42,368 bases of DNA from a virus (IMGVR_UViG_2737471817_000007:1-42368), one strand, 5' to 3'; numbered from the stretch's first letter, positions 673 to 4,628 are shown. The notes: generated from the sequence alone by a model not told the origin. Made by a program: numbers and translations.

Positions 673-1461
673 ATGGTAAACATGGAAAACAAAAAAAGTT
701 GCGTTTATTGTAAAAGCACAACAAACTTAACTAAAGAACATATTTTCCCTTCAGCAATAATTAAAAGTTTTAATGTTGAACTTTTATCGATGACTGATAA
801 GAGTGACTACCATTTTAAAGGCGATCCAGTTATTGGGGATGTATGCGCTGAGTGTAATAATGGAATACTGTCGCAACTAGATGCTGATTTCGTAACTTGT
901 TTTAAAAATCAGATGCTAACACCTTTAAAACCCGGAAATGAAATAACATTTGAATATGAATATGATTTATTATTACGTGAACTTCTAAAGATATCATATA
1001 ATTCAGCGAGGGCATCAAATGGTGGTTATAATGCCAGAGCCATTTTAGAAAAATACATACCATTCATAATCACTGGCAATAAAAACAAAAATGTAGATAG
1101 TATAATTCTTTCCCTTCTAATTGTAACTTCTGCAAATATGGTTAATCTGGAAACTGGTAAACATGAAGAGCCTTTAGAACCATATCTATTAAGAAGCGCA
1201 TCGATTGGTGGTTTAAACCTCAACCCTAACAATTATATTGTTAGGATGGTTGCATTTAATAGCTTTTGGTTTTTTTTGTTAATTCCAAAGAGGCCAGTTA
1301 CATCCAAAGTGAAAAAAGAATTTTGGGATGAATTTAAAAGAAAAAATCATCTGCATGGAGTTTTGTTAAAAAGAAACAACACGTCAATAAAGATCACAAA
1401 AGATAAAACGACATATTTGCATCCTGACTTAATAGAAAAGATGTGGCGAAAAATAAAGTAG
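673..1461 (+). CDS. HNH-type nuclease-motif protein (CxxC...EHIFP...CxECN), very AT-rich cargo gene of unknown function
   Basis: 262-aa ORF; N-terminal CVYCKSTTNLTKEHIFP followed by CAECNN resembles HNH/His-Me zinc-finger nucleases; far lower GC than the phage backbone. Confidence 0.55.
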   Translation: MVNMENKKSCVYCKSTTNLTKEHIFPSAIIKSFNVELLSMTDKSDYHFKGDPVIGDVCAECNNGILSQLDADFVTCFKNQMLTPLKPGNEITFEYEYDLLLRELLKISYNSARASNGGYNARAILEKYIPFIITGNKNKNVDSIILSLLIVTSANMVNLETGKHEEPLEPYLLRSASIGGLNLNPNNYIVRMVAFNSFWFFLLIPKRPVTSKVKKEFWDEFKRKNHLHGVLLKRNNTSIKITKDKTTYLHPDLIEKMWRKIK

Positions 1462-1718
1462 AACAAATTTTCCAGTTGACAATACCAAAAATAATTAATG
1501 GGGACTAGGTTAAATGACGCAGTGGAACAAACTCACCAGAGAAGAAAATTAATGGTATTAATGTTCAATGTGTTCATTACTGTAACCTAGCCCCTACTAA
1601 TTTATTCACTATATTGCTGAGTATGTCCGCATCTGGCACATAGCAGTCCTAGAGACAGTGGCGTAAAGTCATGGATGATCGGTGGAAGGAGGCGCTAATC
1701 CTTTCATACAAAAAATAT

Positions 1719-1827
1719 GTAAAATCAATAACGGCTGTAAATCATTCAATACTCGCCCTATCGGAAGTTCACCAGCCAACCGCAGCACGTTCTTGCATAC
1801 GACGTGGCTGCGGTTTCAACTCCCGCC
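1719..1827. repeat. Hairpin element copy A (two predicted stem-loops; conserved loop ttcttgcatacga)
   Basis: About 90% identical to 3491-3602; core hairpin 1780-1813 shared with 4573-4608. Confidence 0.7.
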
Positions 1828-1912
1828 AATCATGATTGAGCGATAGTAGAATAGTAATAACAAAAATTGGTAGTTATCAGGCTCAGCAAAACACCAATCG
1901 GGTGGTGAGGAT

Positions 1913-1936
1913 ACAAAAAAGGCACCCGCAGGTGCC
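1913..1936 (-). terminator. Intrinsic terminator closing the XRE-ImmA operon (minus strand)
   Basis: ggcacc-cgca-ggtgcc stem-loop followed on the minus strand by a U-run (plus-strand aaaaaa at 1915-1920). Confidence 0.5.
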
Positions 1937-1999
1937 TTAAATACTAACCCTTAGCAGCGCACTAAAAATGCCCACGCCTCGTACCCGTAATCATGAGCA

Positions 2000-2104
2000 T
2001 CAAGGACTTTTTTTGATTTCCCACGCACCTTGCGGTAACGGCAGAAAACCCAACGGAACCCTTTGGGCGCCGCTTTTGAAGCAATTGATTTCAAACCCAT
2101 TCAT
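2000..2104 (-). CDS. Small 34-aa ORF (MNGFEINCFKSGAQRVPLGFLPLPQGAWEIKKSP) downstream of ImmA
   Basis: Strong Shine-Dalgarno (aaggaggtg) 5-6 nt upstream of the ATG; lies between the ImmA stop and the 1913-1936 terminator; below the ORF-track size cutoff. Confidence 0.25.
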   Translation of the reverse strand: MNGFEINCFKSGAQRVPLGFLPLPQGAWEIKKSP

Positions 2105-2222
2105 AAAACACCTCCTTACCAAGAGAGATTTTTCCCTTGAACATCTTCCCTGAAGGTGTTAATTTCAGGCTGTCTATCGAAGCTGTTCACGGTGGTGATG
2201 CCTCTTGGATTCATCACCTAAA

Positions 2223-2259
2223 GCCCCTTGCACTGGTTGGCGCCAAGCAAGGGGTTTTT
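2223..2259. terminator. GC-rich hairpin with T-run at the ImmA 3' end (terminator-like, better formed on the plus strand)
   Basis: gccccttgc ... gcaagggg stem followed by ttttt. Confidence 0.35.
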
Positions 2260-2779
2260 ACATTTTGTCTAGCTGATAACGCGCTGCCACTAATGAAACT
2301 CCGCATGCCTCAGCAACATCCTCAGCCGTCATACCTTTTAAAATACTGGCATGCATAGCTGGCACTAATAACTCACCACTAAAACATTTAGCTTGCCATT
2401 CACTACTCTCAAAAGGGCGGATTTTTACCCCTGGGGCAGAACGAGCAAATGCGATGTTCCTGTGCATAAGAAGATGACCCAGTTCATGCGCGGCAGTCAT
2501 CCTATCTCGCCCTACCCCATTCAAAGCGCCTTCGTAAATGTCTTCGCGCAGAATCAATAAATGTTCCTGTGGGTATGTAAGACCATGCGTCTCTCCCATT
2601 TCTTTCATACCACCAATGTGGAACTCAAAATCCGGGATCAACTGAGGCAATGCGAACTCAATTACCTCCATTACAGGGAATTTAAGCCCAGTAATACCAA
2701 ATGCGCTCCGCAGAGATCTGACGATAGAACGTATTGATTCACGATTCTGCGGAGGTACACGATAATCTTGTCCGCTCAA
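2258..2779 (-). CDS. ImmA/IrrE-family zinc metallopeptidase (COG2856-like)
   Basis: 173 aa with HELGH zinc-binding motif; immediately downstream of an XRE HTH gene in the same operon. Confidence 0.7.
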   Translation of the reverse strand: MSGQDYRVPPQNRESIRSIVRSLRSAFGITGLKFPVMEVIEFALPQLIPDFEFHIGGMKEMGETHGLTYPQEHLLILREDIYEGALNGVGRDRMTAAHELGHLLMHRNIAFARSAPGVKIRPFESSEWQAKCFSGELLVPAMHASILKGMTAEDVAEACGVSLVAARYQLDKM

Positions 2780-2787
2780 GCCGCCTC

Positions 2788-3147
2788 CTACTGCTGTTTT
2801 CGATTCAAAATCTGTCGTAAATTACGGAAGTCTTCTTCATTTAACTCATCAAAACTACGAGCGAACGCAATTGCGACTTCACGAGCGTGGCCATTCTTAC
2901 CTGACAAGCTGATCTCTACTGACTGCTGAGAGTCACGAGCTGCACTGATAAGCTTTTCTTTTTGTTTTTCATCCGCATTAAAATAGCTAATGATGCTATC
3001 AAGCACGGGCTTAGTGACCGCCCTTTTACCAGTTTCGATCGCTGAAAGATAAGACGAGGTCATACCCATAGCCTCAGCCATGCTTTTAAGCGTAAGCCCC
3101 AAGTCTATGCGCATTTTTCTTACTGTCTTACCAAACGGCGTTAACAT
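2788..3147 (-). CDS. XRE-family helix-turn-helix transcriptional regulator
   Basis: 119 aa; LTLKSMAEAMGMTSSYLSAIETGKR is a typical XRE HTH. Confidence 0.7.
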   Translation of the reverse strand: MLTPFGKTVRKMRIDLGLTLKSMAEAMGMTSSYLSAIETGKRAVTKPVLDSIISYFNADEKQKEKLISAARDSQQSVEISLSGKNGHAREVAIAFARSFDELNEEDFRNLRQILNRKQQ

Positions 3148-3327
3148 AGTTGCTTCTCCAGTGTGTCAAAGACCTTCAGTACTTCAGGTCTCATTTTAAG
3201 TTAACACTCCACAGACATGAAATCAACAAAATTCTGTTAATTTTTTTATCTTGCTTAGTTTATGAGTTTACATCTTATGTTGATAGAACTGTTGGTTGGT
3301 GAAGAATCATGGGGAAATGAGTCGTAA

Positions 3328-3483
3328 TCTCTTGATATTTTATGGTATGGAGATGAGTGTCAAAGCTACCATAGCGATGATTTTCCTGTTACCTACACCG
3401 CAGATAAGGATTCTGCTAATGCTTTTGTTCAGGAGACTCTGAAAGATACCTGGGAGTCTGCTGACGAGTGGTTTGTTCATTAA
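3328..3483 (+). pseudogene. Start-less ORF fragment (...[24 protein letters not shown]) ending exactly where hairpin element B begins
   Basis: About 50 codons of protein-like sequence with no in-frame ATG after the upstream stop. Confidence 0.2.
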
Positions 3484-3490
3484 TTAATAC

Positions 3491-3602
3491 GTAAAATCGA
3501 TAACGGCTGGAAATCATTCAATACTCGCACTATCGGAAGTTCACCAGCCAGTCGTAGCACGTTCTTGCATACGACGTGGCTACGGGTTTCGAGACCGACC
3601 CG
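3491..3602. repeat. Hairpin element copy B
   Basis: About 90% identical to copy A; hairpin 3553-3585 has a compensatory stem change (C-G to T-A) relative to A. Confidence 0.7.
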
Positions 3603-3725
3603 ATCATCAAACGAAACATAAAATTAGCTCACATTATGAGGAAAGGTATCTTTTTGCGCTATGTAAATTCAAAGGGTTAGCCTCATTTTCCCGATGGCTT
3701 TCTCAACACTACTAGTTGTGAGCCC

Positions 3726-4550
3726 TTGCAATGTTCATTAATATACGTCTCACAAATAATTCACAGATATTGCAAAATGGATATTACTGAGTTTCCTTCT
3801 GGAGTAATTGAACACCTTGGCTGGTATGTATACCGATTGATTGATCCTAGGGATGGAAGCACCTTCTATGTAGGGAAAGGCAAAGGTAACCGCGTATTTG
3901 CCCATATGCGCGGTGAAGTGGCAGCGGCTGATGATGACGAGTTACTGAGCAACAAGCTAAAGCAAATCAGAGAAATAAGATTAGCGGGACTTGAAGTTAT
4001 CCATGTCATCCATCGACATGGAATGACTGATGAAAAGACGGCGTACGAAGTTGAAGCAGCACTTATTGATGCCTACCCTGGGTTAACGAATATCATGAAT
4101 GGTGCTGGCAGCAATGAATTCGGCGCCGCGCATGTCAAAGAGTTGATAGCAACATATCAACCCGAAACCATAACATTTCATCATAAAGCATTAATGATTT
4201 CCGTTAACAGAAGTGCAAAGGATTCAGAGCTTTATGATGCGGTTCGATTTAGCTGGCGCATTAATGTCTCTCGCGCCAGCCAAGCAGAAGTCATTCTTGC
4301 TACTGTAAGGGGGATCGTTCGAGGGGTTTTCATTGCTGATAAATGGCTCAAATCAACACGTGAAAATTTCCCTACGATGAAATACTGGGACGAGGATCCG
4401 GACTTTGAGGCAACACAAAGTTCTCGCTATGGTTTTGAAGGTCGAGAAGCCCCACCTGAAATAGCAAATCTTTATCTTGGAAAAAAAATACCAGATGAAT
4501 TAAGAAAAAAAGGAGCTATGTCCCCGGTCCGTTACTCACCTAATTTTTGA
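3726..4550 (+). CDS. GIY-YIG nuclease-domain protein with an uncharacterised C-terminal domain (start codon uncertain, possibly 3777)
   Basis: [28 protein letters not shown] matches the GIY...YIG catalytic motif; divergent from the XRE-ImmA operon. Confidence 0.6.
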
Positions 4551-4570
4551 GTCTTTAAGTGATAAGCATA

Positions 4571-4628
4571 AACCGCAGCACGATCTTCTTGCATACGACG
4601 TGCTACGGTTTCATTTATCTCCGACCGG
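4571..4628. repeat. Hairpin element copy C (core only), overlapping the 3' end of the invertase gene
   Basis: ccgcagcacg-atcttcttgcatacga-cgtgctacgg; left arm is A-type, right arm is B-type. Confidence 0.6.

Follow-up and report, generated by a model that had tools for sequence, protein, structure and literature searches.

The DNA analysed here is the viral stretch IMGVR_UViG_2737471817_000007:1-42368, which we refer to, at its full length of 42,368 nt, as the window, and the subject of this study is a small cargo island within it. The window holds a prophage that extends from approximately 132 to 40970 and is inserted at thrW, the tRNA-Thr(cgt) gene at 40925-41000; the cargo island lies at the far end of this prophage, between the attachment site (att) and the gene for the DNA invertase Pin. 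An initial annotation, made from the sequence alone, had described an HNH-motif gene, a pair of genes for an XRE-family regulator and an ImmA-type peptidase, and a GIY-YIG nuclease gene, with copies of a hairpin element between them, and all of these are indeed present (Table 1). The limits of the island are, however, 172-4610 and not a start at 673, and two further features that had not been described belong to it, namely a gene for a small protein, Orf49, and a dinI pseudogene between the XRE gene and the GIY-YIG gene. We propose that this slot of an SfII/SfV-type prophage very probably holds three autonomous modules, that is the HNH gene, the trio of XRE, ImmA and Orf49 genes, and the GIY-YIG gene PD-T4-3/CMoRE, which have been joined by recombination at a repeated element of approximately 100 nt.

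Table 1. Features of the cargo slot and its borders, in window coordinates
Feature	Position	Strand	Evidence and remarks
att core, prophage boundary	132-171		exact 40-nt repeat of 40931-40970; copies the 3' half of tRNA-Thr(cgt), thrW
Conserved left anchor of the cargo slot	172-441		126-441 is 96-98% identical in unrelated E. coli prophages with different cargo (L001, L002, L003, L008)
HNH (His-Me finger) protein, 262 aa, 31% GC (module 1)	673-1461	+	CxxC...EH...CxxCN; Pfam HNH_5 E 4e-5
Boundary element, copy 1	1625-1816	+	103-nt repeat 1714-1816; hairpin ~1778-1815; L050 homology ends at 1812, L002 homology starts at 1634
Intrinsic terminator after the Orf49 gene	1919-1938	-	8-bp GC-rich stem followed by TTTTTTG; -17.6 kcal/mol
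Orf49, basic, 49 aa, phrog_33859 (module 2c)	1951-2100	-	conserved; function unassigned
Hairpin over the ImmA stop codon	2220-2259		+ strand: -22.7 kcal/mol, U-run present; - strand: -22.1 kcal/mol, no U-run
ImmA/IrrE-type M78 zinc metalloprotease, 173 aa, HELGH (module 2b)	2258-2779	-	Peptidase_M78 E 1.4e-9; PADLOC capP E 6e-11
XRE-family HTH repressor, 119 aa (module 2a)	2788-3147	-	HTH_31, HTH_3 E ~1e-10; PADLOC capH E 3.6e-10
Candidate XRE operator, palindrome TCAACA-N6-TGTTAA	3223-3240		XRE promoter region; conserved in L039, the 89.6% variant, with the perfect form TCAACA-N6-TGTTGA
dinI-like pseudogene, 3' part, frameshifted	~3340-3483	+	translation end; DinI-like pseudogene by annotation in L002, L008, L009
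Boundary element, copy 2	3486-3588	+	hairpin ~3550-3587; L001 and L003 homology resumes at 3486
PD-T4-3/CMoRE, GIY-YIG type IV restriction enzyme	3777-4550	+	PADLOC PD-T4-3 E 2.6e-140; PDB 9U75 E 1e-172
Boundary element, copy 3, hairpin core only	4571-4610		directly 3' of the pin stop codon; L050 homology resumes at 4571, L002 homology ends at 4611
Pin/Hin-family DNA invertase, conserved right anchor of the slot	4611-5201	-	Resolvase E 1.6e-51 and HTH_7; pinE by annotation in related prophages

The three units do not make up a single system, and each of them occurs without the others in other genomes. Of 5,426 complete Escherichia coli genomes, 853 have the PD-T4-3 gene with its 177-nt upstream region, which is likewise retained in O157:H7, and the gene usually lies directly beside pinE. 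The XRE-ImmA module was found in 13 of these genomes, the HNH gene in 14, and the three units together in none; the largest share of the region 400-5300 found in one place was 61% in any of these genomes. The initial annotation had taken the units for one integrated multi-gene defence system, a reading that draws on their contiguity at one prophage end and on the presence of two nucleases and a regulator. With each unit standing alone or with other partners elsewhere, and with recombination joints between the units, we regard this reading as extremely unlikely.

The structural genes of the prophage are 97% identical to those of the Shigella phages SfII, SfI, SfIV and SfV, which bears out its initial assignment to the SfII/SfI/SfV type. 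In SfV, gtrV-gtrB-gtrA lie between the tail-fibre assembly gene and attP/int, a position equivalent to that of the island, and the statement in the initial annotation that phages of this type carry gtr genes at this locus was therefore correct. The gtrABC serotype-conversion cassettes of SfV, SfII and SfI share the slot, from the tail-fibre genes to att, but the genes themselves are unrelated, and their product activity is O-antigen glucosylation, whereas nucleases and a putative protease switch are encoded here. The three units had also been described as AT-rich, which holds for the HNH gene but not for the other units, with a GC content of 43-49%; the island as a whole has 41%, as against 50.6% in the prophage and 54% over the structural genes.

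As had been suspected, the locus is a variable hotspot, and this was confirmed by the differing cargo between the same flanks in related E. coli prophages. The anchors, 126-441 and pin, are conserved while the cargo varies (loci L001, L003, L010 and L050), and apart from PD-T4-3 it includes retron Ec67, AbiLi/AbiLii, another HNH protein, BRO-N, a lipase and others. L001 and L003 retain both flanks, 126-441 and 3486-5245, around an interior that consists of the other HNH protein and a hypothetical gene, or of retron Ec67. In L050, which is homologous to the window over 126-1812 and 4571-5600, the order is anchor, HNH gene, element, AbiLii/AbiLi, element and pinE. The lambdoid prophage L002 contains the block 1634-4611 with 98.3% identity, adjoining a tail-fibre assembly gene, and in L008 an AbiTii gene adjoins the trio module. 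At least one unit, PD-T4-3, is a proven anti-phage gene, and the island is a genuine prophage defence hotspot of an already known kind. With the hotspots of P2 and P4 prophages (Rousset et al. 2022, PMC9122126; Vassallo et al. 2022, PMC9519451) it has in common a size of 1-5 kb, conserved anchors, a high turnover and many known defence systems. Unlike in those hotspots, the host phage here is an SfV/Mu-like myovirus with the slot between att and pin, and the modules are bounded by a repeated element of approximately 100 nt that coincides with the homology breakpoints.

This boundary element contains, in its copies 1 and 2, a 103-nt direct repeat (1714-1816 versus 3486-3588, 91% identical) that corresponds to the sequence conserved 3' of dinI in lambdoid prophages, and the hairpin core is present a third time at 4571-4610. 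By folding, the element hairpins have energies of -20 to -26 kcal/mol with z values of -2.8 to -4.3 (for copy 3, -25.8 kcal/mol on the minus strand and z -4.2), and copies 1 and 2 differ by a double change, C-G to T-A, that leaves the stem intact. The homology breakpoints 1634, 1812, 3486, 4571 and 4611 are all within or at the edges of element copies, and in L050 full copies are found on both sides of the AbiL cargo. In addition, 5,163 occurrences of the element, up to 7 per genome and mostly intergenic, were counted in 3,110 of the 5,426 complete E. coli genomes. Since the breakpoints all fall at element copies and the element is so widespread, it looks like a homology patch for the exchange of cargo modules among unrelated prophages: stemming from the lambdoid dinI 3' flank and also placed after pin, it would supply the homology required for module swapping.

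Other explanations for the element were considered and rejected. It is not an attC site of an integron cassette, as the hairpin ends are AACCGCAGC...GCTGCGGTT followed by TCA and not GTTRRRY (attC sites end RYYYAAC/GTTRRRY), nor is the island an integron cassette array, as there is no intI and the sole nearby recombinase is the serine invertase, which has its own sites at 5220-5245 and 7091-7116. Pin-mediated exchange was likewise dismissed, the element being unlike the Pin crossover sites. An Rfam scan of 1-6000 (E<=1) returned only sub-threshold matches (STnc130, 30.5 bits versus a cut-off of 55, and CssrB, 23-25 bits versus 76), and no RNA family fits the hairpin element or the region 1462-1950. 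Boundary element copy 1 aside, this region consists of approximately 490 bp without a convincing open reading frame (ORF), and the STnc130-like match at 1834-1947 overlaps the Orf49 terminator and is probably due to chance.

The GIY-YIG unit had been counted as part of an uncharacterised system, but it is PD-T4-3/CMoRE, for which crystal structures and a known mechanism exist. Its ORF runs from 3726 to 4550 on the plus strand, with the ATG at 3777 as the true start, and contains a LEM-3-like GIY-YIG match (E 2.7e-14). The PADLOC match spans profile positions 1-255 of 256, and 254 of 257 residues (98.8%) are identical to chain 9U75_A of PDB entry 9U75, the CMoRE protein of E. coli O157:H7. The GIYxY-YIG motif has its tyrosines Y17, Y19 and Y31 (G15-W-Y17-V-Y19 ... 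F-Y31-V-G, numbered from the methionine at 3777), and the acidic autoinhibitory loop is retained (AAADDDELL versus AAADDDDLL in 9U75). PD-T4-3 was discovered by functional selection (PMC9519451); it works from its own promoter and protects against Tevenvirinae in its native host and in K-12 alike. CMoRE has been described as a single-protein type IV restriction enzyme that cuts the hydroxymethyl- or glucosyl-hydroxymethyl-cytosine DNA of T-even phages: its C-terminal domain senses 5-hydroxymethylcytosine (5hmC) or glucosyl-5hmC (5ghmC), and the GIY-YIG domain then degrades the phage DNA (PMC12923530). Judged by its sequence, the window protein should therefore cleave DNA containing 5hmC or 5ghmC and protect against T-even phages. 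Nothing of substance differs from the known enzyme (Vassallo et al. 2022; PMC12923530; PDB 9U75, 9U7U) and only the neighbours are different, the gene being placed here after the dinI remnant and the XRE-ImmA module. PD-T4-3/CMoRE is thus fully characterized and no candidate for new-system work.

The HNH protein has a zinc-bound His-Me finger at its N terminus, which is followed by a C-terminal domain of 190 aa. Its HNH_5 score of 23.9 bits lies below the gathering cut-off of 27.5, whereas the relative P0208 reaches 28.2, and PF14279 is precomputed for 13 of 90 homologues. In 47 homologues the residues C10, C13, E22, H23, C58, C61, N62 and D70 of the finger are invariant, and Y97, K106, S108, N110, R113, R174, N196 and F200 of the C-terminal domain are equally conserved. 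The core is of the beta-beta-alpha-metal kind, with a catalytic His, a structural Asn, a metal ligand and a Cys4 zinc site, and the structural model, which is confident, has strands 19-23 and 53-58 and helix 59-80. For the C-terminal domain no sequence or fold match was obtained: it matches no solved structure, Pfam, PADLOC and NCBIfam were empty, and so was a search of PDB sequences with the family profile. In its N-terminal CxxC...EH...CxxCN zinc-bound His-Me finger the protein is like the type IV and stand-alone HNH nucleases (McrA and others, Pfam HNH_5), but it is unlike them in the approximately 30 residues inserted between the two strands of the finger and in the unmatched C-terminal domain. 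Nothing specific on HNH_5 or PF14279 in defence was found in the literature. We suggest that the protein would most likely act on its own as a defence nuclease and that its domain for target sensing would be new; the C-terminal domain would select the target, in the same architecture as CMoRE with its GIY-YIG domain. Some relatives (P0179, P0208, P0242 and P0259) are approximately 430 aa long, with a C-terminal extension of approximately 190 aa that has no Pfam match.

At E<=1e-3 the HNH family falls into 1,127 representative clusters, most of which have 250-290 aa, and its members are encoded in a range of contexts. They are found in the gpS-gpV slot of P2-like prophages, in Hafnia and in four of ten IMG/VR loci beside a gene for a DUF4238 protein, which we take to be a validated defence system. 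DUF4238 is mentioned in the paper on P2-hotspot defence (PMC9122126). Further contexts are the slot between tail fibre and integrase genes in Morganella, a position beside umuDC and a resolvase gene, cassette-like arrays in Vibrio with ThsB (E 9e-125), Shedu (E 3e-81), Mrr and ParE/Phd, and lone insertions at different chromosomal sites in two Shewanella strains.

The trio consists of the XRE-family helix-turn-helix (HTH) repressor gene, the gene for the ImmA/IrrE-type protease, which follows it after 8 nt on the same strand in one operon, and the gene for Orf49. Compared with the 89.6%-identical variant, the Orf49 gene has 13 synonymous and 3 non-synonymous differences (pN/pS 0.065) and is for this reason considered a real gene; the ImmA and XRE genes are likewise under purifying selection. 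Homologues of Orf49 with 57-92% identity are present in Photobacterium, marine metagenomes and Caudoviricetes, and in five of seven distinct contexts, including distant phages and islands, HTH and metalloprotease genes are situated directly upstream with a spacer of 150-185 bp. The AlphaFold2 model of Orf49, which is confident (pLDDT 88.7), a small sheet with a short helix, had no match among solved folds; Orf49 had no Pfam, PADLOC or NCBIfam match, and a profile search of PDB sequences was empty.

The trio is found in several settings. In L009 it lies between an intact dinI gene and a dinI remnant and in L040 and L041 between int and att of another prophage, in each case without PD-T4-3, in L008 it precedes a different gene of 410 aa, and in L046-L049 it stands just after cI. 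As seen from the sequence, the palindrome upstream of the XRE gene may serve as the XRE operator. No similar palindrome is present upstream of PD-T4-3, and a comparison of the XRE promoter with the upstream regions of PD-T4-3, Orf49 and HNH genes for a shared operator gave a single common 9-mer, TGTTAATTT, which occurs upstream of Orf49 only, where the half-site spacing differs from that in the XRE promoter. The hairpin over the ImmA stop codon is a good terminator for plus-strand transcripts only; the Orf49 gene has a terminator of its own, which is strong.

The protease can be compared with those of known protease and repressor pairs. It has no GAF domain, which in CapP and IrrE provides a groove for single-stranded DNA (ssDNA), its C terminus gives only weak HTH-like matches, and the capP alignment is limited to profile positions 56-147 of 242; because of its length of 173 aa and the absence of a GAF domain of the CapP/IrrE type, we consider it ImmA-like. 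The arrangement of an adjacent HTH repressor and HExxH metallopeptidase is shared with CapH/CapP, but besides the GAF domain the cysteine-switch loop is also absent here. With ImmR/ImmA (ICEBs1, phi105) and DdrO/IrrE it shares an operon in which the gene for a small XRE repressor precedes that for an M78 protease with HExxH, and with 119 and 173 aa the sizes agree with the XRE of approximately 120 aa and ImmA of approximately 170 aa of the former. Unlike in these three systems, there is no adjacent excision or immune operon on a shared promoter, and the protease gene is followed by a conserved gene for a 49-aa protein. RosmerTA (Millman et al. 2022; Ernits et al. 2023, PMC10440598) is similar in that an HTH and a zinc peptidase are combined with a small variable partner on phages, and partial matches to 15 RmrA models were obtained, which cover only parts of these 360-400-aa profiles. 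However, HTH and peptidase are separate proteins here and a single antitoxin, RmrA, there, and Orf49, which is encoded 158 bp away and has no predicted membrane segment, would be the only toxin candidate.

By analogy with ImmR/ImmA, CapH/CapP and RosmerTA, whose logic it appears to share, the trio is best read as a self-contained protease-and-repressor switch with an output that includes Orf49. The XRE repressor would shut off its own operon until a signal, for example DNA damage or infection, activates the ImmA-type protease and leads to cleavage of the repressor; the output would be a raised expression of the module, with the basic 49-aa protein as the likeliest effector. To regard the trio as a candidate defence module is reasonable but unproven.

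Several observations on related loci can be added. The loci L054/L055 (1546-4150) contain a chromosomal mini-island between the pyruvate kinase gene and a DUF2339 gene, which holds an HTH, M78 and Orf49 trio divergent from the gene for a 393-aa protein with T5orf172/MUG113 (GIY-YIG clan); a relationship of this protein to PD-T4-3 was ruled out (BLASTP E 5.8). In L010 (4384-6635) a different XRE and ImmA pair, followed by two small ORFs of 49 and 47 aa that are unrelated to Orf49, is divergent from a BRO-N gene; this pair fills the slot beside PD-T4-3 in a further E. coli prophage. The 410-aa protein that stands in place of PD-T4-3 after the trio in strain EC09 (L008, 7205-8437; phrog_19262), with an AbiTii gene nearby, had no Pfam or PADLOC match and would be a further cargo of the hotspot. 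In L009 the intact dinI gene and the remnant stand at opposite ends of the trio, an arrangement that would be expected if insertion of the trio had duplicated the 3' end of dinI together with its flank. A tRNA gene beside the trio was looked for in L039 and none was found.

The relationship between the trio and PD-T4-3 needs to be considered in particular, as the initial annotation had seen an inducible-type regulator in the XRE-ImmA pair. One could propose that the pair is a damage-sensing regulator of the CapH/CapP type that keeps the divergent PD-T4-3 nuclease low until infection. PADLOC capH and capP are the best pair-wise matches, the pair and PD-T4-3 are divergently oriented, as are the trio and the GIY-YIG clan gene in L054, the block 1634-4611 is co-inherited in five genomes, and repression of PD-T4-3 has been suspected in the native-host study. 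However, the 630 bp between the two start codons hold the dinI pseudogene and a boundary element that is itself a breakpoint, the trio exists without PD-T4-3, and PD-T4-3 is present without the trio in approximately 840 genomes and active from its own promoter. Furthermore, no common 9-mer was found in the two promoter regions, and what the ImmA protein lacks is precisely the ssDNA-sensing part of CapP. Such a regulatory link is therefore improbable in our view, and the pair, being ImmR/ImmA-like and found without PD-T4-3, is probably not the regulator of the nucleases. It is also rather unlikely, given what follows, that the trio is a residual or accessory immunity switch belonging to a mobile element, comparable to ImmR/ImmA of ICEBs1 and phi105, that controls induction or excision and has no part in defence. 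ImmR/ImmA controls excision and transfer, its size and operon layout fit, and the positions beside int and cI in the loci listed above would be in agreement with such a role; but in the window no int/xis is adjacent, the trio is far from int/xis and cI, and a repressor region of the prophage itself is located near 35 kb. In addition, the trio moves as cargo among unrelated prophages, and since all three of its genes are under purifying selection it is not decaying.

For the HNH protein, it has to be asked whether it is a selfish homing-type endonuclease or serves a phage function, for example as a terminase helper, rather than defence. HNH proteins are commonly homing endonucleases or packaging factors, and the lone insertions in the Shewanella strains would suit a selfish element. 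However, a tblastn search of 50,697 cultured phage genomes revealed no homologue, which argues against a homing or packaging role. The gene was never seen beside a terminase gene but is found in variable slots with defence genes, and prophages of this type carry a separate HNH gene adjacent to the terminase gene. As the gene is missing from most related prophages, it is not essential, and we think it quite unlikely that it has a homing or packaging function.

Some of our data weigh against three autonomous modules, or against the roles that we assign to them. The block 1634-4611, from the XRE module to PD-T4-3, travels as one 98.3%-identical piece in five genomes, and some functional coupling within it is possible. 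The tie of Orf49 to the protease pair is not absolute, as it was found once after a TIR gene without XRE-ImmA and once with no called neighbour. Neither the HNH protein nor the trio matches a PADLOC model as a system. Finally, the hairpin of the boundary element has no good U-run on either strand, and its role may be that of a terminator or purely that of a recombination joint.

At the borders of the prophage, a 20-nt inverted repeat (104-123 and 189-208, 85% complementary) is situated on both sides of the 40-nt att core. Beyond pin, the sites at 5220-5245 and 7091-7116 are candidate Pin/Gin/Cin crossover sites, inverted 26-nt sequences (TTTTCATAAACATTGGTTTGGGAGAA and TTCTCCCAAACCAAGGTTTTCGAGAG) that are complementary at 21 of 26 positions, and they flank an invertible segment of approximately 1.9 kb with alternative tail-fibre ends and tfa genes.

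While three autonomous modules joined at the element remain our preferred reading of the island, the more far-reaching joint claim, namely that two new defence modules lie beside the known one and that the element is a general joint, is put forward only tentatively, as a possibility. In E. coli the gtr slot of the SfV group functions as a hotspot for defence genes, with modules that are cleanly set off by repeats, and its borders, from the att flank to pin, provide a simple anchor for mining further cargo. The residual novelty resides in this clean repeat-bounded modular layout and in two uncharacterized cargo families, the 262-aa HNH protein and the XRE/ImmA/Orf49 trio, both of which are well defined, widely distributed and cheap to test. 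If the joint claim is true, the HNH family would represent a new single-protein nuclease defence with, as in CMoRE, a C-terminal target sensor, here of a new kind; XRE, ImmA and Orf49 would together make up a new module of three parts that is triggered by a protease and has as its effector the 49-aa protein, whose conservation extends from E. coli to marine bacteria; and the element of approximately 100 nt would be a general joint for the trade of modules among E. coli prophages of different families.

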